This document shows positions 8,148 to 25,854 of a stretch of 64,000 bases of DNA, piece by piece (the first letter of the stretch is position 1; each line of letters opens with the position of its first letter). The position numbers were made by a program, and so were the translations under genes. Below the pieces are notes generated by a model, which had not been told where the DNA came from, searched no databases, and saw only the letters and a list, made by a program, of their open reading frames with translations. The DNA is from an uncultured Acidobacteriota bacterium (GTDB taxonomy: Bacteria; Acidobacteriota; UBA6911), in assembly GCA_963827655.1 (NCBI GenBank), contig CAWHCF010000010.1, forward strand, positions 234,542 to 298,541, read 5' to 3'.

Positions 8148-10228
8148 ATGGGGGGTGATCGACTGTACCGGCACATTCATTACCTCTATTTGTTGCGAGT
8201 TCCGATTCTGTTCTGCGTGCTGTTGCTAGCCCTGGTTGCCGTCGCGGTCCCGAAAGATGGCGCCGCGGCGAGTCTGCTTCGGGGTACGTTCGACATCGCA
8301 CCGCCTGGCGCGAGCTTCTGCGTCCAGTACGTTTCGTTTCTCTTCTGCGTCATGGCGGCTGCAAGCGTGGCATTTGCCATCTACATGACGGCGTACCTGG
8401 TGCTCCAATACTCCCACGCGCGGTCAAAAGCGGCCAAAATCTCCAAGACAGACCTCGACAACGCGGACCTGCTGCTCGTAATCCTTAGCGTCCTCCCGGC
8501 GGTGGCGCTGGTGATGGGGGCCTGGGCCGTAACCGATGTTCTGTGGTATGTCGCGCTCGGGGCGCTCGTGAGCGGTGTGGCGCTGAGCGTCGCCCTTGTA
8601 TATGTGCGTCCATGTCTGTAACCCGCCGGGGTGGCCACTCCGGTGGCTGGCGGCGAGGTTCCAGCACTCACCGGCCGGCTTCCTTGACCAGAGGGACGAT
8701 TTTCTTCCCGGCCATCGGCTCGCCCTCCTCTACCTGATCTTCAGTGTCGCGCTTTACGCGCTAGCCGGCGTCGTCAAGGGATTCTACCTTGAAGAGAAGA
8801 TTGTGTTCTCGACGCTCACGATGCTTTTGCTGTGGGCCGCGCTAGCCTGCTGGGCATCCGGCTTCGTGGCGTTCTTTTTCGACCGCTATCGGATCCCGTT
8901 CTTGATTCCACTGGTCCTGTATCTCGGTGCGGGATCGTTTTCTCGAGAGAACGACCACTTCTTTCCATCCCAGAAAGTCGAGCCACCCGAGCAGGTGACG
9001 CCGGGGATTGCACTCGAAAAAGGCGAGCACGACACTGTCATCGTGGTTGCTGCGACCGGAGGAGGCATTCAGTCAGCCGCCTGGACGGGGAATGTGCTGG
9101 CCCGGCTCAAGGAGACGTTTGGCGATGTCCCCCAGTTCGACCGTTCCGTGCGGCTGGTCAGCTCGGTCTCGGGCGGCAGCGTCGGCGCCATGTATTTCCT
9201 GCACGCCTATCAGAACGGGGTCCTTCCCTCCGGCCCGGAAGAACTGCGCTCGCGCATTATCGAGCCGGCGCAGGCATCGAGTCTCGACGCCGTCACCTGG
9301 GGCTGGTTGTTCCAGGACCAGTTGCGGGCGTTCATCCCGTTCGGCTGGGAGGCGACTGGGTTTGCTTGCAAACGATCGTGGATTGAGTTTACAGGAGGCA
9401 TGGTCGGAACGCGCGACGGGGATCGGGAACGCAACACTTGCCTCGTGGCGGCGCGATGCGGCAGCCGGCCTGCGTCCGGCGGTAATTTTTAACACGACCG
9501 TGGTTGAAACGGGACAGCGGCTGCTGCTGTCGACGACCGATCTGAGGAAGCGCGAGAAGGGATGCGCTCCACGGGCCGCTGCGCTTTCGGCGAGCGTCGG
9601 TTTCTACGACCTGTATCCGTGCTCGGATATCACCGTTCCGACGGCGGCGCGGCTGTCGGCGACCTTCCCGCTGGTGACTCCGGCGGCGCGGATCGAGCAA
9701 GGCGGGACCTGTGAGCGGCACAACCATGTCGTCGACGGCGGCTACTACGACAATTACGGGATGTCTTCGCTGCTGGAGTGGCTCGACATAGGTTTGCAGC
9801 AGACGAGCGCGATCCGAAACGTGATTGTCCTCGAGATCCGATCTTCTCCCGCGGCGGAAGCCTCTCCTGCCGAGGGTAAGTTCGGCTGGTTTTTCCAGAC
9901 AGGTTCAGCTCTCACCACAATGGCAAAGGTGCGGGAGGATGCGCAGCTTGCCAATAACAATCGGATGCTCTGCATGGCGAGACGCCTGTGGGCCTCAAAA
10001 TCCGTGACGATCACAAGTTTCCCGGTTGTGTACCAGTCTCCGGAGCAGGGCGCGAAGCCGCCGACGCCTCCCTTGTCGTGGCACCTGACGGCGGAACAGA
10101 AGGCGAACATCGAAGGTGCCGCCGCCAGGGCGGCCCAGGGAGTGATCCGCGACGTTAAAAGCTGTTTTACCAACCCACAGAAATGTGGAGAGCTGGCGAG
10201 AAACTATGACGACGCCTGTCGGAATTGA
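8148..10228 (+). CDS. Multi-TM patatin-like phospholipase (two apparent frameshifts, near 8610 and 9345)
   Basis: N-terminal TM helices, then AATGGGIQ, SSVSGGS nucleophile elbow, LSATFP and VDGGYYDN across three ORF frames. Confidence 0.7.
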
Positions 10229-13991: not shown

Positions 13992-15615
13992 CTAACGCTC
14001 CAGGTGGAAGCCGAACGCGTACTGCGTTCCGTCATAGCCTCCGACATAAACACGGCCTCCACCTGCCGAGAGTCCACCGCTATGCACAAAGGATGTGATC
14101 GCGCCGCCACTGTTCCACAGCTCTTTGCCGGTCACGGCATCGAGCGCGTACAAGACCGCTGTCGAGGAACGCTGTGCGCGCTGCGCGGCGGTAAGCTGAG
14201 GATCGCTCGAGCGGAACTCGCCGCTGGAGAGCGCAAAAACCACGCCATTGACGATCGTGGGCGGCAGTGGCGAAACCATGTCGCGCGAGACCCAGCGCGG
14301 TCGCAAGGTGGGAGCGCCGTTCTCTTCAACGACCTCGAATGCGACAATCGCGCCATTGCTGACCTCGCCGTTGCCGGACGCAGATCCGGCGGCTGAGGCG
14401 ACCGAGCCGCCGGCCGGAGCCAATAGCCAACGTGTGCCGTCGGAGCCCTGCCAGCTGGCCAGGGAGCCCGCGGCAAAGTCCGGGTTTGAAAAAGCGGGCG
14501 TTATTGCCAGCGGCTTACCGTCCAGCGCGGCGGTGTCGAGCAACTGAATCCGGCCGTCGCGGGTAGCCACGGCGATCAGATCCTTGTCCTTGTACTCGAA
14601 CACGACGGGCGAAGAAGTGAAATCCTTTCCGGCCTTGTAGGAAGTCTTGACCGTGAGCGTGCCCGGCTCGAGCGCCACCAGTTCTCCGCCCGCGGCGGCC
14701 ACATAGAGCGTTCCGTCCGGACCCACCGCGAAACCTGCCGATCCGGCCACTCCGCCACCGGATTTCCAGTGAGTCACCTTCTTCGACTCCAGATCGAGCG
14801 CCCAGACACCATCTTCGACACCGCCACAACCGTTGACAGTCGCCACATACGCGGTGTTGTCAAACACGATCAGGCCGCGGGCATTCGCATTGGGCGGCAA
14901 GAACTGGATGGGCGGGTTCGGTTCTTCGCCGTTGGATACATAGAGCGAATGGAACTTGCCGTCGGACGTAACCGCGTGCACGTACTGCGGACCGCGGGCG
15001 AACGGGTTGGGCGCAGGCGCGGTTCTGCGGCCCGCCCCAGTCGCCGGAGTTGCCGGAGCCGGAGGCTGAAGTGGCCGCTCTTTCAGGGTGACCGCACCCT
15101 CGAAGGGTTCGCCAACTCCCGACTTTGCCGGCCCGCCCCGTCCGAAACCGCGGATAGCGGCCACCGCAGGGTATGCGACAAAAGTGGGACGCGTAAGGCT
15201 CGAGGTCATTCCTCCGGGGCAGAGGAGGGACGCGGGCGGCGCTGGAATCCGATGCAAGACTCTTTTCCCACTCGATGCGGGCCATGTCGACGTCCATCGC
15301 GATGATTTTGTCCGAACTGCCGCCCACGAATCCGAGCGAACGGAAGCCGCGGTACCCGATGTAGAAGTCGAACAGCACCGCCGGCATCAATGAATTCAGT
15401 TGCCGAGCCTCGTTTTGCAACTTGAGCTTCCATACGAGCTCAAAGCCGGGCTTCGCCATGGTCGCGGCGGAAATCTTTGCGTCCCCCCGGACCCAGGACG
15501 ACCGCTGGCCATCGTTGCCCATGGTCGTCCAGTCCGTACCACGCTGGGCGTACAACTGGCTTATGGCTCCAAGTGCGTAGCCTGCGAACACCGCGGAACG
15601 AACTAACTTTTGCAT
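13992..15615 (-). CDS. PQQ-binding-like beta-propeller protein (frameshift near 15235)
   Basis: [29 protein letters not shown]; paralog of 15940-17493. Confidence 0.75.
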
Positions 15616-15939
15616 ACCAAGAAAACTCCTCTTCGGTTCGCGACCGGAAACTCGGTGATTTGAAGCCAGGTTTCCGTCAAATCCGGCGTCCGAGCAATCC
15701 GCGAAACACTTGGCATTGTTCATCGGCTATCTTTGCGATTGGTGTCCTGGACGCTTGACTTAAAATAGCCCTTCGAAAAATCGCCCACTAACCATAAACA
15801 TCGACCTTGCCGTACGATGGATCGTCTTCAATCCCCTTACTCCGGGGATGTCACACGCGTACGGTTTGCTGTATAGTGAGGCGTTTGGGGAGAAAAGTAA
15901 AGCCACGTCGACTCATCTGCGTCGTCGGAGAGACCGCCC

Positions 15940-17493
15940 ATGAGAAGATTCCGAATCGTTGTTCCGTCGTTCCTATGGCTGCTTGGCGTCAGCGCCTGGA
16001 GCGCTGACTGGCTGACTGATGGCGGCGATGTGATGCGCACCAACTGGCAGAAGGACGAAAGCATCATCAACACGAAGAACGCGAAGGACATCAAGTTACT
16101 TTGGAAAATCAAGCTGGACAACCAGCCGCGCCAGATGCATTCGCTCCTCCCTCCGCTCGTAATTGGACGCGTCAACACCGGCAGCGGTCCGAAGCAGCTC
16201 GTCATCCAGGCCGGCGTCTCGGATAATCTCTATGCTATCGACGTTGCTACAGGTGAACTCCTCTGGAAGAGGCGTTTTGAAAGCACATACGAGGACCCGC
16301 CCGGCGCCCGCGGACCGACTGTGCTGTGCCCCGGAGGCATGACGGCAAACGTGACGATCGGACCCGGGGGAGAGCCCGGCAAGTACACTATCTACGCCGC
16401 CTCCTGGGACGGCCGCCTGTGGCAGGTCAACGCTGCCGACGGAAAGGACAATGCTCCGCCTGCCAAATTCATGCCCCCCAACGGCAAGCCGTATGCGATG
16501 AACCTGTTCAAGAACGTTCTGTACACCCACAGCGCGCAGGGTTGTGGCGGCAACCCGAACGTCGTCTACGCCTATGATCTGGCCACCCACAAGGTAGGCA
16601 GTTGGGGACCGGCGGGCGGGGGCATGTGGGGCCGATCCGGTCCTGCCATCAGCGCCAACGGAACGATGTATACCGGAACGGGCGACGGGCGTTGGGACCC
16701 GGAAAACGGAGTCTTCGGCAACGGTATTATCGGCGTGAAGCAGAATCCCGAGACCAAGAGTCTGGAGCTCGTGGACTACTACGGGCCTTCCAACGCCGAA
16801 TGGCTCTTCAAGCGTGATCTGGATATGCAGGTGACGCCCACCATTTTCAGTTACCAGGGCAAGGAGTACATGGTGGACGCCAGCAAGGAGTGTCGTCTTT
16901 ACTTTATGGATACGGAATCCATCGGCGGCGACGATCATCGGACACCAGTCTACCGCACGCCCCTCATCTGCAATGAAATTGTGGATTTTGCGGAGGCCGG
17001 CATCTGGGGTTCCCTGGCCACGTGGGAAGAATCGAATGGAACCCGTTGGCTGTTGACACCCTTTTGGGGACCGAAGCACTCCCAGTTCAAGGCGCCGGTG
17101 GAGCATGGCGAAGTCAAGAAGGGCGCCATCGCAGCGTTCAAGGTGGAGCCGAAGGAGGGCAAAGTGCAGTTGTCGCCGGCGTGGATTTCGCGCGACATGG
17201 ATCAGGCCGAGCCCCCCGTGATCGCCAATGGCGTGGTATATGCCTATGGCAGCGGCGAAAACACGGCGCAGGCATTTCCGGACGTGGGCCTCGACTTCCG
17301 GATGGAGCGGCGACTTCCCAAGTCGACGCACGCCGTGCTGTACGCCCTGGATGCCCAGACAGGCAAGGAGCTCTGGTCCAGCGGCAAGCAGATCCCCACG
17401 TGGAATCACTGGGGCGGTCTCGCGATGGCCAACGGGCGGGTGTACATCAACACGTACGACGGGGTTCTGTACTGCTTCGGCATCAAGAAGTGA
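15940..17493 (+). CDS. PQQ-binding-like beta-propeller protein, secreted
   Basis: Signal peptide, [14 protein letters not shown] and [16 protein letters not shown] tryptophan-docking repeats. Confidence 0.85.
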
Positions 17494-18507: not shown

Positions 18508-18784
18508 TCCAGGCACCGGTCTGATGATTGTCGCGAAACCACCCGATACATGTGCGGACGGGCTATCAAGCCCGTCCGGCCCCCTGGTGGCACAAAAGCT
18601 TTCATTGGTCATTTCTCATTCGTCATCTGTCATTTGTCATTAGTGGGTGCTGCGGGCGGGTTTGCGCTCGCAGACTACGCGGGCCTTGTTACCCCATGAA
18701 TGACAAATGAAAATGAACAGACCTGATGACCCGTCGCCACAGTCAAATTGCAGGGTTAGAGCTGAGGTTTCAGCAACCGCGGGG

Positions 18785-20272
18785 TCAGCGCTTGGGCGCA
18801 ACGTCGGCGTCAAACGCGGCGGTCAGGATCCGATCTCCGACCTTGACCTGAACCCAGAGGCGATAACGGCCGTCCTGCGGGAACTCGAATGGAAAGGAGA
18901 CGGTGCCGCCGGCCACGGCGGCGTGCTCGCTGTGATCCACTGGCTTTGTGGTTGCGCCGGCGCCGCGCTCGAGTACCTGCTGAGCCGCCATCGAGAAACT
19001 CCCGGCAGGATGGATGTGGGCGAAGACGGAACCGTCATCGCGCCGGACGGCCATGTGTCCCAGCATCCCCATATAGGGCTCGAGCGCGGCCGGGCGGCCG
19101 TCGCTCCCGCGCACCTGAAAAGTGAGAGATGAGGGCTGCCCCGCGACCAGCTCCTGCTGTTGCCAGACCATGACGATACCGTCGGCGAGCGGAGCCGCCG
19201 GGCTTGCCGCGCCACCAAGCGCCGCGGCGACGTGGAAGGAGTCGTCAGGATCGGGTTCGGGCGCGGCGCCCGGCGCCGCCGTTGATGGGGCTTCGGGTAC
19301 GTCGACACGATCGGTCAGAGTCTGCGCATATCCGCTCTCGTGCGTGACGTCGGCGTAGACGACGTAGCGGCCGGCGGGGAGCGGCGGCAACCTGACGTCA
19401 AAAGTGTTCGGGTCAAGGCGGAGCGGATGGAGGTGCGCGAAGGCGTCGAGCGCCGGCTCGCGCACGAGGAACATGTGCATCAGCTTGCCATGGTCCGGCA
19501 CCAACGGACTGAAGCGGTTCCGTCCCGGTTCCTGCGCGAGCCACCGCGGATCGTCGATCGCCAGGCGGAGCACGCGCTGCGAGGCCACGGAGCGGACGCC
19601 GGTGGTGATGTGGAGCGGGCGAAACATGTTGGCGCGGTAGCGGGCGTCGACGCTGTTCCACCATGCCCTCCCACCCGCGAGCACGAGCGCCAGAACGAGA
19701 GCAGATCCGGCGATGACGCGTCGACCACGGGCCCGGCGGGCCGCGTCGGGAACTTCGCCGGGCGGAAGCACGGCCTCGCGCGCCGCAGCGCCGAGGATGG
19801 TCAGGGCCCCGACAAACAGCAAAAGACCGAGCCCTGCGAACAGCACGCCGAGCCCCCGGTCGATTCCGAGCCGCCGCGTCGCCACCGACATCACCGGGAC
19901 GACGGCCTTGCCCGACCCGGACGTGCCTTCGACCGCGACGTGGATGCTGTAGGAGCCGAAGTCCATGAGCCAGAGCTCCGCGCTCCGAAGGGTCGCGTCG
20001 CCGCGCACCGGCTGTGCCAGATCGGGGGCTGGCGCACCTTTGGTGCCGGCGTCCCAGCGGACGGGTTGGACCGTGACCCTCCCCACCTCCGGGCTCTCGA
20101 CTCGGACGGTCACTTCGGCGCGTCCCGGCACGACGCCGGGCGGGCGGACGATCACGTCGATCGCGTAGGGCCCGGCGTTGCCATGATAGAAAACGGTCGA
20201 AGCGCCGATGTGCCCCCAGGTGGCGAACGGTATCGCGATAAGGAAAGCGAGGCGCGCGAGCGTCCTGATCAC
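18785..20272 (-). CDS. His-rich exported membrane-anchored protein (signal peptide, N-terminal His, soluble domain, 2 TM, soluble domains); PmoB-like topology
   Basis: ATWG|HIG; two central TM helices; DHGKLMH, HLHP, YMGMLGH and HIHP motifs; GTGA overlap with upstream gene. Confidence 0.75.
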   Translation of the reverse strand: MIRTLARLAFLIAIPFATWGHIGASTVFYHGNAGPYAIDVIVRPPGVVPGRAEVTVRVESPEVGRVTVQPVRWDAGTKGAPAPDLAQPVRGDATLRSAELWLMDFGSYSIHVAVEGTSGSGKAVVPVMSVATRRLGIDRGLGVLFAGLGLLLFVGALTILGAAAREAVLPPGEVPDAARRARGRRVIAGSALVLALVLAGGRAWWNSVDARYRANMFRPLHITTGVRSVASQRVLRLAIDDPRWLAQEPGRNRFSPLVPDHGKLMHMFLVREPALDAFAHLHPLRLDPNTFDVRLPPLPAGRYVVYADVTHESGYAQTLTDRVDVPEAPSTAAPGAAPEPDPDDSFHVAAALGGAASPAAPLADGIVMVWQQQELVAGQPSSLTFQVRGSDGRPAALEPYMGMLGHMAVRRDDGSVFAHIHPAGSFSMAAQQVLERGAGATTKPVDHSEHAAVAGGTVSFPFEFPQDGRYRLWVQVKVGDRILTAAFDADVAPKR

Positions 20273-21442
20273 CGTTTCACCCGCGCCATCCAGCCACCCC
20301 AGGCGAGTCCGAGTCGGGCCGAGAGGAAAGAGAACAGGAGCGCCAATCCCAGACCGCGCAAGCTGAGCGGGTCCTGGGCCTGGTTCCAGAACTGGTAACG
20401 CCAGGGACCCGGGCGGGCGTCGTACGACCAGATCCGGTCGCCCCCGAAGAACCAGTTGCGCGACAGCGGGGAAAGCAGAAACTCGGAGAAAAAGAACTGC
20501 GCCGCGAGGAAGAGCGCGAAGAACACCGCGCCCACCGCGGCTGCCAGGACCCAGTCACTCTTGCAGGTCGCGCGGCGGAGCAGGAGGTCGATCCCAAACG
20601 CGGGGATTACAAGGAGCAACGGAAAGGCCGGCGGCACCATGTGGGTCACGCGGTTGTAGATCGGGCCGAGCAGCGGTTCGGCCGGAAAGAGCGGCAGAAT
20701 CCAGAGCATCGCTGCGATCAGCAGCATGTAAACGGCGGCCGCGGTGGTCGCGGGCCAGCGCAGCTTCGAGCCGCGCGCGGTCGCGAGGAGTAAGATGGGA
20801 TACAGACCGCAGCTTATCTGATAGAAGAGCGAGGCGTGCTGCTGGTTGGGAGTGTTGTACTCCATCACCAGGAGCGCGAACAGCGCAATCAGCACCCCCG
20901 CAGAGTAGCCGAAGAGTACCTGGACCCGCCCTGTCGGCGGGCCCCCTCCCGTTGTTCTGCCATGCTAACGAAAGAAGCAGCGAGCCCAGAATAATTCCGA
21001 GGATCCCGGCGGCAAGCACCGTGTGGGGCGGGCTCAGCACCTCGACGTCGAGACCATAGGCGTTGTGCCACCAGTCATCGAAGGGCGCGGAGGTCAGCAT
21101 CGCAATCGCGCCCCAGATGGCGACCCACGCTCCGAGCGGCGCCCGGAAACCCCAGACCGGCACCGATGCGCCGCGTTCCGCGGCGCTTCCGGCAAAGGTC
21201 GTCTTGAGCGCGAGCCAACCCGAGGAGAGTCCGCCCAGGATGCCCCCCAGGTACATGGCCACGTGCGCCGGCGTCCAGAAGGTGTCGCGCCCGATCGTCG
21301 AGTGCCATGAGATGTCCCAGATGGCTCCGACGATGATGCTGGTCGAGCCCACTGCGAGGGCGTACAGGTACCACGGGACAGCGCTCGAACGCTCGGTCGG
21401 AACCGGCCCGACCTGGTCGAGAGACACGGCGGCGTTGGACAT
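20269..21442 (-). CDS. Polytopic membrane protein with PmoC/AmoC-like copper motifs and PmoA-like C-terminal half (one extra base near 20945)
   Basis: DISWHSTIGRDTFWTPAH and DDWWHNAYGLDVEVLSPPH; FPLLLVIPAFGIDLLL; span is 3n+1 with a G run at the frame switch. Confidence 0.75.
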
Positions 21443-21615
21443 CGAGACCTCCTTGCGTGGAAGCCTGCATTATACCAAAAAGGTTTTTGATGTTTCTTCG
21501 TGACTTTGCGTCCTGGTGGTATTTGTTTCGCAGCGCTAACCACGAAGAGCGAAGAACACCAAGAAAGCGTGATAAGATGGCGGCAATGAAGCCAAATCCT
21601 GGCTGGGAGCTGAGG

Positions 21616-23700
21616 ATGGTGGTCCGCCCCGTAATGAGAGCCAACGGAGCTGTTCTTTTGCTCGCCTCGCTGCTCACGGCTGCCTCCGGTGAACTCCCGA
21701 ATCTCGCGCCCCAGGTGCGCTCGATGTCACCACTCGGCGGCCGCGCGGGTGAGACTGTCGAGGTGGAGGCTTCCGGACAGTGGCTGGCGAACACACAAAG
21801 CGTCGCCTTTGTCCGCCCGGATATCCGCGCCGAACTCGTTTCCTCGGAGTTCGCCAGCGTGAAGCTCAAGATTTCGATTGGACCTCGGGTTCCCACCGGG
21901 CTCCACGATTACCGGCTGCGCACTACGCACGGAACGTTCGTGGGAGTTTTTCATGTCGCTTCGCTTCCGGCGATCGGCGAGACAGAATCCAACAATGATA
22001 CTTCGCAGGCGCAGAACATTGCGCTTCCGGCCATCATCCACGGAATAGTGACCGCTCGCGACTACGATCTGTTCCGGTTCCACGCCCGTCAAGGCGAGAC
22101 TCTGGTGTTCGATGTGCTGGCGCGGCGCGCCGGGTCAGGCCTCGACGCCACATTGGCGGTCCTCGACGAACGCGGCAATGAGCTGGACTTCAACGACGAC
22201 TTCTACATCCACAAGGACCCGCATCTGGCTTTCACGGCGCCTCGCTCCGGCGATTACTTCGTTCAGGTCAGCGGGAGTGAGGAAGGCGGGTCGCCGTCGA
22301 GTCCGTACCGCTTGATCGCCGGCGCTGTTCCCCACATGCTGCGCGCGCTGCCTGCGGGGGCGCGCCGGGGCTCGTCCACGGAACTGAACATCGCCGGACT
22401 GAACCTTGACCGCGTCGAACGCCTGGTGCTCGGAGACGGGCTCGGGGAGGGAAAGGTGGTTCATGCCAGGCAGAATTCGCTCGCGGTCCGCCTGGAGGTG
22501 CCCGCCTCGGTCGCTCCCGGCCCGCATGCGCTGCGCGCGTTCGCGGGCGGAGTGGAAGCGCCCCTTCCTCTCACCGTGCTGGTTTCCGATTTCGAGGAGG
22601 CTCTGGCCTTGCCCGCGCGCAGCCGCGCGCAGCCACAGCCGGTTCGCATTCCTGCGGCGATCAGCGGCGTGCTGGAGCAGCGCCGGACCGCGCATTTCTA
22701 CACCTTCGAAGTCAAGTCGGGTGACCGGCTGGTCTTCGAGGTGGACGCCATGAAGCTTGGTTACCTTGTGGATCCCGTGGTTGGCATCTACACCCTGAAT
22801 GGGGAGTTGCTCGCCTCCGACGATGACCGCTTGCAGCAAAACGGCGATGAACCACCCAACCTGGACCCCTATCTCGTGTACCAGTTTGACAAAGCCGGTC
22901 AATATCTCGCCATGATTCGCGATCTGGCGCAGCGCGGCGATCAGAATTACCTGTACCGGCTCGCGATCTACCCGGCCAAACCGGATTTCGACGTGAGGGC
23001 TTTGACGCCGGCAATTACCTTGTACCGGGGTCAGACGGTGCTGCTTCCCGTGCGGGTGCGCAGACACGGCGGCTGGGAAACGCCCGTCGATGTCTGGTTG
23101 GAGAACCTGCCGCCAGGAGTGACCACGGACAAACGCGTTGCGGAACCCAAGCCGACCATAGTCAAAGACAACTGTGCGCTGGACCGGCGCCTCGACGGCA
23201 CAAATGTCGACCTGCCCCTTCATGTCTCCGCCAGTGCGTCGCCTGGTTCCTATTCGCTTCGCCTGCGGGCGCGCGGCGAGTACAGTGGCCGCGCCGTCGA
23301 ACACAGTGCCGAGATCCTGTACAAATGGGAGTCCGTCGGCAAAGTGACCGGGGCCATCGCCGATCAGACTCTGGTGGCAACCGTCACGGAATTCCCGCCC
23401 GTGATCCTCGATGTGCCCAGCACATTCACCATCACGCCGGGCAAGCCGGCGCGCATGCGAGTGCGCGTGACGCGGTTCGACGGCGCTGAATCTCCCCTGA
23501 CCATCGAGCCTGAAGCGCCTGTCGACGGCCTGAGATTCGAGAACAACGTTCTGGCCGCGGGAGCGGAACAGGTGGAATTGCGCATCATCGCGTCGGAGCT
23601 GGTGAAACCCGGCACTTTCCGGCTCCGCGCCGGTCCTGCGCTGTCGCAGAGCATCACATTCAAGTTGCCGAGTCAGGGCGAGGAGGAGGACCCGGAGTGA
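21616..23700 (+). CDS. PPC (pre-peptidase C-terminal) repeat protein, planctomycete type
   Basis: PLGGRAGETVEV, ETESNND, DLFRFHARQGETL, DPYLVYQF; first gene of DUF1549/DUF1501 operon; start uncertain. Confidence 0.8.
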   Translation: MVVRPVMRANGAVLLLASLLTAASGELPNLAPQVRSMSPLGGRAGETVEVEASGQWLANTQSVAFVRPDIRAELVSSEFASVKLKISIGPRVPTGLHDYRLRTTHGTFVGVFHVASLPAIGETESNNDTSQAQNIALPAIIHGIVTARDYDLFRFHARQGETLVFDVLARRAGSGLDATLAVLDERGNELDFNDDFYIHKDPHLAFTAPRSGDYFVQVSGSEEGGSPSSPYRLIAGAVPHMLRALPAGARRGSSTELNIAGLNLDRVERLVLGDGLGEGKVVHARQNSLAVRLEVPASVAPGPHALRAFAGGVEAPLPLTVLVSDFEEALALPARSRAQPQPVRIPAAISGVLEQRRTAHFYTFEVKSGDRLVFEVDAMKLGYLVDPVVGIYTLNGELLASDDDRLQQNGDEPPNLDPYLVYQFDKAGQYLAMIRDLAQRGDQNYLYRLAIYPAKPDFDVRALTPAITLYRGQTVLLPVRVRRHGGWETPVDVWLENLPPGVTTDKRVAEPKPTIVKDNCALDRRLDGTNVDLPLHVSASASPGSYSLRLRARGEYSGRAVEHSAEILYKWESVGKVTGAIADQTLVATVTEFPPVILDVPSTFTITPGKPARMRVRVTRFDGAESPLTIEPEAPVDGLRFENNVLAAGAEQVELRIIASELVKPGTFRLRAGPALSQSITFKLPSQGEEEDPE

Positions 23701-25854
23701 TCTTTGCAGCCGCCGTGCTTTTCGTATCGGTTTTCGCGCCCGTGGCGGCCGGCGAGAGCCCCAGCTTCGCCAACGACATCGTCCCGATCCTGACCAGGTC
23801 CGGCTGTGCCAACTCCAACTGTCACGGCTCGATCCGTGGTCAGGCGGGATTCAAGCTGTCCCTGTTCGGCTATGAGCCCGAACTCGACTATGACGCCATT
23901 GTAAGAGACGCGAACGGGAGGCGTATCGACCGCGCGGATCCAACCCGGAGCCTCATTCTGGCCAAGCCGACCTTTGCCATCCCGCACGGCGGCGGCGAAC
24001 GCTTCAAGGCCGGGTCGCTCGAGTACAACGGCATCCTGGAGTGGATCAAATCCGGAGCCGCGTTCGACACGCCGGGCGCGCCGCGGCTGAAGGAGCTTCA
24101 GGTGTCGCCCGCCGAGATGCTGATCACCGGCATCAATTCTCGAGCCGGCCTGTCGGTCGCAGGCGCATACACGGACGGCTCAATAGCTGACCTCACGAAA
24201 AAAGTGCAGTACACAGCCAATGACGAGTCGGTGATCGAGGTAAATGCGGCTGGTGAAATCCGCACCCTCAGGGCCGGCGAGACGGCGGTCATGGTCCGCA
24301 CGCTCGGCAAGGCAGTTGCCGTGCGCGTCGCGGTGGTGGCCCAACCGCCCCGGGCGAATTATCCCGAGACGCCGTGCGCCAACTTCATCGACGATCTCGT
24401 CGTCGCCAAGCTCAAGCGGATCAACATCGTTCCCTCGCGGTTGTCGAGCGATCACGAATTCCTGCGCCGCGTATATCTCGACACCGTCGGCGTGCTGCCC
24501 TCACTCGAAGAAACCCGCGCTTTTCTGGAGTCAAAGGATCCCGGCAAGCGAGCTCGGTTGATCGACACGCTTCTCGAGCGGCCGGAGTTTGCCGAGGTTT
24601 GGGCCACCCGCTTCAGCGACCTGTTTCGAGTAGGCTTGCTCGACCAGGGCAACAAAGGCGGCCGGCTGATCTACAACTGGATGCGCAAGGCGATCCGCGA
24701 GGACAAGCCCTATAATGAGTTCGTCACCGAACTCCTGACCGCCTCCGGCAATCTCTTCTACAACCCGACGGCCAACTTCTATTACGTCACCGAATTCGCC
24801 GAACCGGAGAATTACGCCACCAACATAAGCCAGGTCTTTCTGGGAGTGCGGCTCGAGTGCGCGCGGTGCCACAATCATCCCTGGGAAAAATGGACCCAGG
24901 ATGACTTCTGGGGCTTTGCGGGATTCTTTGCCCGCATGGGCGTGAAAGACACGTATCAGAATGATGAGAGTCAGATCCACCTGAAGTTGAAAGGCGAGGT
25001 GCTTCACCCGAAAACCAAGAAACCGGTCGCCGCCAAGTACCTGGACGGTCCGGCCGAAACCGAAGGTCCTGATGAGGACATTCGGGAAAAGCTCGCCGCG
25101 TGGATGACGTCACCCGACAATCCCTGGTTCGCGCGGGCCATCGTGAACCGAATCGTGAAGCACTATCTGGGCCGCGGTCTGGTCGAACCCTTGGATGATT
25201 TCCGCGTGACGAATCCGCCCAGCAATGAGGCGCTGCTGGACGCGTTGGCGAAGGATTTCGTCCGCAGCGGATACAGCTTGCGGCATACCATTCGACTTAT
25301 TCTCAACTCCCGCGTGTACCAGCTCTCCGAGTGAGCCGAACGAAACCAACCGTGATGACGAGATCAACTATTCGCGCTATCCCGTCAAGCGTCTCATGGC
25401 TGAGCAGCTGGTCGATGCGATCACACAGGTAACCGGCGTGCCTGAGAAGTACCAGGGGTTTCCGCTGGGTACGCGCGCCATGAGCATCCCGCGAGGCGCG
25501 CCTTCTTATTTTCTGCAAGCCTTCGGCCGCATGAAGGCGCGCGAGGTCATCTGCGAACGCGACCTGCAGCCCGCGATGAACCAGGCGATGCACCTGATCA
25601 GCGGCGATACGTTACAGCGGCAAATAACGGCGAAGAACAGCCGGCTCGCGCAATGGCTGGAAGACCCTTCGCTGTCGGATGAAGAAGTGTTGAAGCGGCT
25701 GTTTCTGACCACGCTGGTGCGCGAGCCGGATTCCCGTGAGATCTCACTGGCGCTCGCGCCCATCCGTCTCCGCGGACCCGAAGCGCGCCGGCAAGCGTTC
25801 GAAGACGCCCTGTGGGCTTTGTTCAACTCAAAAGAGTTTACTTACAACCACTGA
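23697..25854 (+). CDS. DUF1549/DUF1553 (PSCyt) domain protein (frameshift near 25330)
   Basis: SFANDIVPIL..GC..NCHG, EFLRRVYLD, CARCHNHP, FARAIVNR, RLMAEQLVDAI, EFTYNH. Confidence 0.85.

Follow-up and report, generated by a model that had tools for sequence, protein, structure and literature searches.

What is encoded by a pair of overlapping genes on the minus strand of an uncultured Acidobacteriota genome (contig CAWHCF010000010.1 of GenBank assembly GCA_963827655.1), for which standard annotation was expected to offer no more than two hypothetical proteins? The pair lies in a 64,000-nucleotide stretch (positions 234,542 to 298,541 of the contig; hereafter, the window), and the original prediction read it as a compact (CA)-B complex resembling the copper membrane monooxygenases (CuMMOs), with gene 1 encoding a fused PmoC-PmoA-like protein and gene 2 encoding a PmoB-like partner. 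On the basis of profile comparisons, family-wide alignments, and gene neighborhoods, we lean toward the view that this two-gene operon encodes a self-contained inner-membrane metal-binding complex, with copper as its most likely metal and with a role in copper handling. The complex would belong to the same superfamily as PmoC, and possibly PmoA, which are subunits of the CuMMOs, while representing a separate family.

The two genes are arranged as follows:

20269..21442, minus strand: gene 1, about 390 amino acids (aa) with about 10 transmembrane (TM) helices, split over two frames in the assembly (open reading frames [ORFs], hydropathy, family profile)
18785..20272, minus strand: gene 2, an ORF of 495 aa with a GTG start

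As predicted, they are coupled through the tetranucleotide GTGA at positions 20269-20272 (TCAC on the plus strand), which is common to the GTG start of gene 2 and the TGA stop of gene 1. All sequence features named in the original prediction were recovered where it had placed them.

In the N-terminal half of gene 1, three features were delineated:

20963..21373, minus strand: PmoC-core-like domain, residues 24-160, with four TM helices in two tandem hairpins (hhalign)
21263..21316, minus strand: site 1 motif, D43-x3-H47-x12-H60 (DISWHSTIGRDTFWTPAH), on the invariant Asp-His-His (CuC-type) columns of PmoC
21023..21079, minus strand: site 2 motif, D122-x3-H126-x13-H140 (DDWWHNAYGLDVEVLSPPH), on the invariant Asn-His-His (CuD-type) columns of PmoC, with Asp for Asn

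Both motifs were found at the residues for which they had been predicted, and all six putative ligands were invariant in 26 out of 26 close homologs, as well as 100% conserved in a set of 51 sequences that included relatives from Chloroflexota. In a broader set of 151 representative rows, 105 covered all six ligand positions; the DHHDHH pattern was present in 91 of these, and 14 deviated. Members with replaced ligands, including P0281, P0300, P0309, P0317, P0327, P0332, and P0346, show patterns such as DEHDQQ, DQHDHH, and DDHDQQ; with the rest of their sequence conserved, they may be ligand-less paralogs.

Scanned as a single sequence, gene 1 matched AmoC models only, and below threshold: PF04896 at E=0.048 (13.5 bits versus a cut-off of 26.7) and NF041641 at E=0.016 over residues 42-137 (14.5 versus 319), with TIGR03078 reaching 14.2 versus 280.6. 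For profile-profile comparisons, reference pmoC/amoC, pmoA/amoA, and pmoB/amoB sequences were taken from loci found with the A189f primer pattern in genome contigs, and nine reference CuMMO sequences were confirmed by Pfam at E<=1e-94. With hhalign, an alignment of 26 close relatives of gene 1 matched one of 13 PmoC/AmoC sequences with a probability of 74.8% (E=2.6e-5, 106 columns), placing gene 1 residues 43-159 on PmoC residues 129-245. A comparison of 51 diverse family members, including those from Chloroflexota, with 51 PmoC/AmoC sequences, including Actinomycetota, Binatia, and Chloroflexi types, yielded 93.3% (P=2.8e-7) and a score of 50.2; the corresponding controls scored 13.3 and 13.6 (reversed alignments), 13.3 on average and 21.2 at most (100 column shuffles), and 24.5 on average and 42.2 at most (100 block-8 shuffles). 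The probability was 92.1% with 108 family sequences and 87.8% in a further version, and five actinobacterial sequences that were outside the earlier sets matched PmoC too (P=6.5e-5).

In the resulting register, D43/H47/H60 fall on D129/H133/H146 of PmoC (Methylocystis numbering) and D122/H126/H140 on N200/H204/H218, residues that we take to be D156/H160/H173 and N227/H231/H245 in Bath numbering. These PmoC columns are 100% conserved and make up the only Asp-plus-two-His and Asn-plus-two-His sets in the 51 PmoC/AmoC sequences, in agreement with the CuC and CuD sites, since section 12 of PMC13058606 gives two His and one Asp as the ligands of the former and two His and one Asn as those of the latter. 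Outside the ligands, W46, R52, D53, T57, and P58 around site 1 match W132, R138, D139, T143, and P144 of PmoC (conserved positions in register: D, W, H, R, D, T, P, and H), and W124, D132, and P138 around site 2 match W202, E210, and P216 (D/N, D/E, W, H, D/E, P, and H). Like PmoC and AmoC, the gene 1 core is thus predicted to consist of four helices in two hairpins, in the same order, with the Asp-x3-His-x12-His and Asn/Asp-x3-His-x13-His motifs in register in periplasmic-side loops and with the W, R-D-T, and T-P residues shared; according to hydropathy and loop charges, the loops that carry the two motifs are acidic, with Arg/Lys-rich loops in alternation.

There are also differences. Unlike in PmoC, the two hairpins of gene 1 are still recognizable as duplicates of each other (96.8%, P=2.9e-10, 59 columns), a comparison that gave P=0.048 for the two hairpins of PmoC, and six further helices are fused to the core. 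Furthermore, site 2 carries Asp rather than Asn, and the alignments begin only at PmoC residues 127-129; gene 1 has 23 residues ahead of its first helix, and no counterpart of the first ~125 residues or of the additional helices of PmoC was encountered in it. Because these residues are absent and the family cut-offs were failed, gene 1 falls outside the AmoC family proper, and no canonical AmoC above cut-off was found elsewhere in the window's own genome. Judging from the alignments, we are nevertheless highly confident that the N-terminal half of gene 1 and the PmoC core are remotely homologous.

Could the PmoC likeness be convergent or a matter of chance, with gene 1 encoding a generic Asp/His helical hairpin in an unrelated membrane protein with another metal or function? 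All curated hidden Markov model (HMM) scores are far below their cut-offs, an AmoC match at E<=1 was obtained for just 2 of the 26 gene 1 relatives, and, at E<=0.01, the family profile missed the PmoC of a Methylocystis genome, but the eight site 1 positions in register include five that are not ligands (W, R, D, T, and P), both triads are identical in spacing to those of PmoC (x3 and x12; x3 and x13), and the helix order and the polarity of the loops match. Similarly, while the significant signal is mostly confined to 26 columns around site 1 (hairpin 1 alone matched the PmoC hairpin at P=8.9e-10 over these columns), the real score exceeded those of all 200 shuffles and both reversals, and in about a dozen decoy comparisons across unrelated TM alignments, P was never below 0.011. 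We therefore consider convergence very improbable.

For the C-terminal half of gene 1, the picture is less sharp. One region was delineated there:

20278..20628, minus strand: possible PmoA-like region, residues 272-388, with the last three TM helices and the motif FP-x5-PA-x3-D (suggestive only)

Residues 161-390 matched 76 PmoA/AmoA sequences with a probability of 52% (P=1.4e-4, score 36.0, 114 columns), with residues 272-388 on PmoA 125-247 (at its widest, 221-388 on 72-247), so that the matched part amounts to the last 115-175 residues of PmoA; reversed controls scored 11.7 and 12.0, and 40 shuffles at each of the block sizes 1, 8, and 20 scored at most 22.1, 23.1, and 28.7, respectively. 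The match recurred in the same register with 108 sequences (P=2.6e-4, 42%), with representatives only (P=5.1e-4, 31%, 165 columns), and in the full-length alignment (P=6.1e-4, 28%), in which it followed the PmoC match collinearly. With close (canonical) relatives only, it was weak (P=0.013-0.016), and no signal was present in the Chloroflexota (P=0.12) and actinobacterial (P=0.61) subsets. Gene 1 shares with PmoA/AmoA (PF02461) this collinear profile match, the FP-x5-PA-x3-D motif (P274 in 98% and D285 in 88% of the family; P127 in 94% and D138 in 100% of PmoA), and RW.AT, to be compared with RLP.GAT. Unlike for a true PmoA, however, the hhalign probability stays between 28 and 52%, the N-terminal part of PmoA is unmatched, gene 1 has nothing that corresponds to the PmoA loop of highest conservation (AD..G....RT..PEY.R..E.GTLRTF), and no match to the AMO (PF02461) HMM was found in the gene 1 pieces, in the near-identical homolog P0001, or in any of the 26 relatives. 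The resemblance is above all decoys yet not decisive; we call it suggestive and consider the chances that the C-terminal half is homologous to PmoA to be about even.

The partner encoded by gene 2 was divided into five parts:

20213..20272, minus strand: signal-peptide-like N terminus, residues 1-20 (hydropathy, with hydrophobic residues 1-19, and alignment; putative cleavage site)
19859..20212, minus strand: N-domain, residues 21-138, beginning with the invariant His21
19661..19852, minus strand: TM hairpin of two helices with an Arg-rich loop in between
19268..19627, minus strand: domain C1, with a PDHGKLMH...FAHLHP motif and invariant H261, H266, H280, and H282
18788..19240, minus strand: domain C2, with an EPYMGMLGH...FAHIHP motif and invariant M401, M403, H406, H419, and H421

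Hydropathy and alignment bear out the predicted signal-peptide-like start, His21, soluble domain, two TM segments (141-159 and 186-204, with nonhydrophobic domains on either side), and His-rich domains. H21 directly follows the signal-peptide-like stretch and is invariant in 29 out of 29 sequences; in the same sequences, no other invariant His was found in residues 21-138, nor was a conserved His-x-His. Domains C1 and C2 are repeats of each other (P=1.1e-4).

Like PmoB/AmoB (PF04744), gene 2 has a signal peptide-like start, a predicted mature N-terminal His, and a soluble-2TM-soluble topology, and it is encoded right after the C and A equivalents; the CuB site of PmoB has three His ligands, one of which is the N-terminal His, as described in PMC11725843. 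In the sequence itself, however, homology of gene 2 to PmoB found no support. Compared domain by domain with hhalign, gene 2 reached at best P=0.0066 over 29 columns, and no Monooxygenase_B (PF04744) match was obtained for gene 2 or for any of its 29 relatives. A further candidate match, between the stretch formed by the signal peptide and N-terminal His and that of PmoB (P=0.033), was discounted as evidence of homology. Moreover, unlike in PmoB, H21 is the sole invariant His of the N-domain, two repeated His/Met-rich C-terminal domains take the place of a single cupredoxin, and the weak Pfam matches of gene 2 relatives point to YtkA and CopC: YtkA-like (PF13115) matches were found in 7 of 29 (best E=8.4e-5), though not in the window's own gene 2 protein at E<=1, and CopC (PF04234) in only 2 of 29, at E 0.1. 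As far as the sequence goes, the PmoB likeness of gene 2 is one of topology and N-terminal His only, and we regard homology to PmoB as unlikely.

The family to which the pair belongs is large. Gene 1 has at least 7967 relatives of ~390 aa at E<=0.001 (of 8000 scored candidates), and the best 120 matches listed, with 63-99% identity over the N-terminal half, were unnamed or "hypothetical" and had no Pfam domain; named relatives among the matches listed came from Thermoanaerobaculia metagenome-assembled genomes (MAGs). Of 1.84 billion cluster representatives searched with an HMM, 2479 matched at E<=1e-3; with cut-offs of E<=1e-10 and E<=1e-30, the matches numbered 1576 and 468, respectively. For gene 2, more than 2678 relatives of ~500 aa were counted, likewise without Pfam domains, the named ones being from Thermoanaerobaculia, Longimicrobium, and Gemmatimonadetes MAGs. 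As predicted, both genes are labeled hypothetical by standard annotation. The Atlas clusters for the gene 1 homolog P0028 were unnamed and originated from Gemmatimonadota, Acidobacteriota, and Chloroflexota. Within the literature searched, the family is undescribed and without a Pfam model: no paper on such a PmoC-like family was found, subscription papers and supplements, which could list relatives, being outside the reach of our searches.

The distribution of the family is patchy. Among 201 genomes sampled from the window's own phylum, it occurs in 10, the own genome (in which gene 1 is single copy) included; in a class sample around a Thermoanaerobaculia MAG, it was present in 3 of 101 genomes; in the phylum to which a Chloroflexi MAG belongs, 14 of 151 genomes carry homologs, which are divergent and often multicopy; and it was present in none of five named genomes sampled, including a Methylocystis. 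One unpublished genome belongs to both of the first two samples (as G024 and G209, respectively), which suggests that the window's own phylum is that of Thermoanaerobaculia; it also enters the linkage and junction counts below and supplies one or two rows of the larger alignments, but no claim depends on this genome alone. The linkage of the two genes is conserved, with a gene 2 homolog located directly downstream, on the same strand, in 9 of 10 other own-phylum loci (the exception being a second copy in genome G199). Additionally, at 9 of 10 junctions examined, the gene 1 stop and an ATG, GTG, or TTG of gene 2 overlap in an NTGA, and a 1-nucleotide spacer separates the genes at the tenth; this count omits L136 and L144 (gene 2 frame-broken), L140 (no gene 2), and L147 (a duplicate of L137). 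In two MAGs, the genes carry adjacent NCBI locus tags (VHC97_07315/07310 and VE685_00200/00195). Beyond the pair, no conserved neighbors were found in 10 related loci, the flanking genes having unrelated functions according to Pfam; a di-heme peroxidase (L142) and a ferredoxin (L139) were each seen once among them.

In Chloroflexota, the gene downstream of the 400-aa forms encodes a small, exported protein with a beta domain and a C-terminal anchor, which shows weak similarity to the N-domain of gene 2 (E 0.002-0.35, small search), and forms of 560 to 735 aa have a fused C-terminal TM segment and beta domain. The theme common to all these forms is therefore a membrane protein combined with an anchored periplasmic beta domain, separate or fused. 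Fusions of genes 1 and 2 themselves were not convincing. P0022 (481 aa, from an 8.38-Mb contig), in which residues 1-196 of gene 1 are joined to 147-493 of gene 2, was considered as a Rosetta stone protein but read as the probable product of a deletion between adjacent genes, because its junction, inside a TM helix, would leave the gene 2 domains with an inverted topology. A search for longer forms returned four proteins; three of them, P0390 to P0392, are single-member clusters from one contig each, and two of these, P0390 and P0392, in which parts of both genes are present, resemble gene calls fused across frames.

Clues to the metal came from plasmids. A tblastn search of annotated plasmids revealed a canonical pair (401 and 538 aa, both "hypothetical") on a plasmid of Chondrinema litorale, near genes for CorA and a resistance-nodulation-division efflux pump, and divergent Actinomycetota homologs (25-37% identity over 25-71% of the query), which are "hypothetical proteins" of 475-496 aa that keep both motifs. 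The latter match the family core with a probability of 99.7% (P=9.3e-27), helices 5 to 7 being similar too (87.9%). Six actinobacterial loci were examined (Streptomyces sp. FR1 was left out), and five of these sit in copper/heavy-metal islands, with neighbors that include CsoR- and CopY-type regulators:

Mycolicibacterium aubagnense (L166): YHS protein, CopY-family regulator
Streptomyces mirabilis (L167): cupredoxin, DUF5134, HMA protein, P-type ATPase
Streptomyces sp. F2: multicopper oxidase, cupredoxin, DUF5134, DUF305
Mycolicibacterium chubuense NBB4 (L170): HMA protein, CopY-family regulator
Leifsonia shinshuensis: adjoining metal-sensitive regulator; two P-type ATPases, YHS, HMA, multicopper oxidase, four-helix copper-binding protein

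No copper or heavy-metal genes were found at the sixth locus, in Rubrobacter. The proteins of the five listed species have the same core and both motifs as gene 1; unlike gene 1, they lack a PmoA-like signal, are set in copper islands, and carry a fused C-terminal domain with a TM anchor, without a separate gene 2. In five out of five actinobacterial homologs (L166-L168, L170, and L171), this fused domain opens with A-H-D-P-G-Q-G right after a hydrophobic helix (residue ~326-330), which places a His after an A-x-A-like site within a polytopic protein. A pyridoxal phosphate-dependent cysteine synthase gene followed by a major facilitator superfamily transporter gene was observed a few kb from the homolog in M. 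aubagnense, S. mirabilis, and M. chubuense, a pair that presumably resembles the copper-responsive cysK2-Rv0849 pair of mycobacteria.

Given this context of copper islands, copper is the likely metal, and a role in copper homeostasis is likely for the actinobacterial branch; that the canonical pair has the same role is something that we infer. The general design is also reminiscent of CopC/CopD and YcnJ/YcnI, with which the pair shares a polytopic membrane protein, an exported, His-first beta-sandwich partner, a YtkA-like domain, and relatives in copper islands. YcnJ is built as CopC-CopD-YtkA, and YcnI has an N-terminal His brace. An hhalign comparison with CopD gave P=0.9, at low power with five CopD sequences only, and no PF05425 (CopD) match was present in the window's own genome. 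In view of the plasmid contexts and of the N-terminal His, the His/Met motifs, and the YtkA-like matches of the gene 2 family, we consider it quite probable that the gene pair binds copper, although the metal itself is what we infer here, and we cautiously favor a role in copper homeostasis or trafficking.

Several of our results weigh against this reading. The copper context stems solely from the divergent actinobacterial branch, with its different, fused architecture; the fused beta domain of that branch showed no similarity to any gene 2 domain, and no conserved copper-gene neighbor of the canonical pair was found in the window or in 10 related loci. Neither gene passes any curated family cut-off, a profile search of PDB sequences returned no matches at E<=10, and the fold and the spatial clustering of the two triads are predictions. 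Hairpin 2, which holds site 2, did not by itself match the CuD hairpin of PmoC significantly (P=0.25), so the PmoC match is driven by site 1 and collinearity. At least one ligand has been lost in the 14 deviating representatives mentioned above, and the metal sites are therefore not essential to every member. Finally, gene 1 is frame-broken in the present assembly. As regards its presence in nature, soil and rhizosphere runs from 18 studies contained near-identical DNA, and two RNA libraries yielded contigs that match gene 1, one of which crosses the gene junction; this is compatible with expression, but such contigs are no proof of transcription.

With these points taken into account, the copper-handling reading suggests the following mechanism. 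The N-terminal half of gene 1 would have arisen by tandem duplication of a two-helix hairpin, each copy of which places an Asp-x3-His and a later His at the periplasmic helix ends, and the two hairpins together would be the counterpart of the four-helix core of PmoC that houses CuC and CuD; of the six further helices, the last three to five may match the C-terminal part of PmoA. Through the NTGA stop/start overlap, gene 2 would be produced in step with gene 1. Its product, once exported, would probably begin with a His after signal-peptide cleavage, be anchored at the membrane by its TM hairpin, and expose two repeated His/Met-rich YtkA-type beta domains to the periplasm, where it might capture copper and hand it to, or take it from, the two membrane sites. 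Physiologically, this could serve copper acquisition, sequestration, or the oxidation of Cu(I) at the membrane surface.

Might the operon instead encode what was originally predicted, a true compact (CA)-B copper membrane monooxygenase or oxidase of unknown substrate in heterotrophic soil bacteria? The membrane copper sites would then be catalytic, the C-terminal half of gene 1 would form a PmoA-like substrate pocket, and gene 2 would play the part of PmoB. The part that is conserved is indeed the PmoC core, which PMC11725843 describes as home to the proposed active site of particulate methane monooxygenase, and the identity of the N-terminal half among the best 120 matches listed is high; the PmoA-like signal, although weak in the canonical subset and absent from Chloroflexota, fits the C-A order, scores above all controls (P=1.4e-4 to 6e-4), and comes with a motif in which P and D are conserved on both sides; and gene 2, despite lacking PmoB homology and a conserved His-x-His in its N-domain, has the expected topology and an invariant N-terminal His. 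Unlike the three-gene xmoC-xmoA-xmoB operon, the locus has two genes, one of them fused, with resemblances that are still ordered C, A, B. Of the (CA)-B interpretation and the profile checks proposed for it, the PmoC part stands by profile-profile comparison, with all six ligands aligned, the PmoA part is suggestive, and the Monooxygenase_B part failed. Moreover, neither a reductase, nor a dehydrogenase acting on alcohol or hydroxylamine, nor any other pathway gene was found to be conserved nearby, relatives reside in copper-resistance islands, and the patchy, partly plasmid-borne spread (see the genome counts above) is like that of accessory resistance genes. We consider a true (CA)-B enzyme possible but doubtful, put an oxygenase acting on some other substrate at similarly modest odds, and find copper handling more likely than the oxidation of hydrocarbons (methane or alkanes) or ammonia.

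A related speculation, which we hold just as tentatively, is that the family is a surviving sister lineage of the CuMMOs, with a fused C-A scaffold and ancestral symmetry, and that its canonical form in Acidobacteriota and Gemmatimonadota is an active copper oxygenase or cuprous oxidase. CuC and CuD would then derive from the duplication of one Asp-His-His hairpin, possible substrates would be ammonia, small hydrocarbons, or Cu(I), and the hosts would be common soil heterotrophs.

As noted above, gene 1 is interrupted in the window, where its sequence is spread over two ORFs that overlap and differ in frame (20555..21442 and 20269..20895, both on the minus strand):

20936-21442, minus strand: gene 1 frame A, the part before the extra base
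20935: extra base that breaks the gene 1 frame, absent from the X1 and X2 contigs, with P0001 uninterrupted
20269-20934, minus strand: gene 1 frame B, the part after the extra base

The family profile matches the two pieces at model positions 5-170 and 171-389. That gene 1 would encode ~390 aa once a single extra base is removed was confirmed by P0001, a 99%-identical homolog from another assembly, which is unbroken at 390 aa. Position 20935 was covered by two public soil/rhizosphere DNA runs from different studies: X1, in which one contig, representing the entire depth there, lacks the base, and X2, in which it is missing from one contig of 1645 nucleotides that spans 19875-21500. Since neither run nor P0001 contains the extra base, the frame break is private to the present assembly.

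Might the operon of the present genome nonetheless be a decaying pseudogene with a real frameshift, a possibility compatible with the other readings of the family? The assembly does contain the extra base, frame breaks were also found in other genomes, and ligands have been lost in the deviating representatives; yet two independent DNA runs and P0001 lack the base, both halves of gene 1 are otherwise intact and conserved, and another gene, about 4 kb away, is frame-broken too. The latter, an unrelated PSCyt2/PSD1 (DUF1549/DUF1553) gene on the plus strand (23697-25854), has PSD1 model positions 2-84 at the end of ORF 23697..25334 and positions 85-241 in ORF 25225..25854. A second break within 5 kb suggests assembly indels rather than decay, and we regard the pseudogene explanation as improbable. 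As for the other genomes, gene 1 is broken near model position 205 in G110 (L141), and gene 2 near positions 60-90 in G130 (L136) and G142 (L144), with G082, of the same genus, being intact. Elsewhere in the window, ORF 9008..10228 (plus strand) aligns with no more than the final third of the Patatin model (positions 136-188 of 191); an ORF in another frame (8596-9492, plus strand) overlaps it upstream, which may represent another frame break. Just inside gene 2, three adjacent letters (20266-20268) differ in other strains, represented by a contig of X1, that of X2, and a contig of the RNA library X15, with the GTGA overlap being kept.

The remaining surroundings can be summarized briefly. Two divergently encoded PQQ_2/BamB-like beta-propeller proteins (13992-17493) were observed upstream of a GDSL lipase, and the neighborhood, with this GDSL lipase, DUF1501, PSCyt2/PSD1, and ThuA, has no link to copper or monooxygenases. 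A promoter scan of the locus found none, and the two terminator-like sites that were found, versus 2.8 expected in shuffles, include the following one:

18716..18735, minus strand: weak terminator-like hairpin, ~50 nucleotides past gene 2, not above chance

CuMMOs initiate the aerobic oxidation of methane and ammonia, and the location of the active site in PmoC is, according to PMC11725843 and PMC13058606, still debated. The family described here is a large, undescribed relative that keeps both PmoC-type metal sites while these are still visibly duplicates, and it therefore provides a hypothesis for the origin of the CuC/CuD pair and may show from what source methane and ammonia monooxygenases arose. 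It also offers an outgroup for rooting the CuMMO tree, for which a 2018 phylogeny, lacking a true one, took archaeal AMO as the "logical outgroup" (PMC6215863); if the sister-lineage speculation were true, this would be the first true outgroup for PmoC and perhaps PmoA. In practical terms, cultured Streptomyces, Mycolicibacterium, Leifsonia, and Chondrinema make a simpler two-gene system accessible for studying the chemistry of such sites. Bacterial copper homeostasis would gain a new component if the family handles copper, and a catalytic role would extend the range of membrane copper oxygenases to abundant soil heterotrophs.

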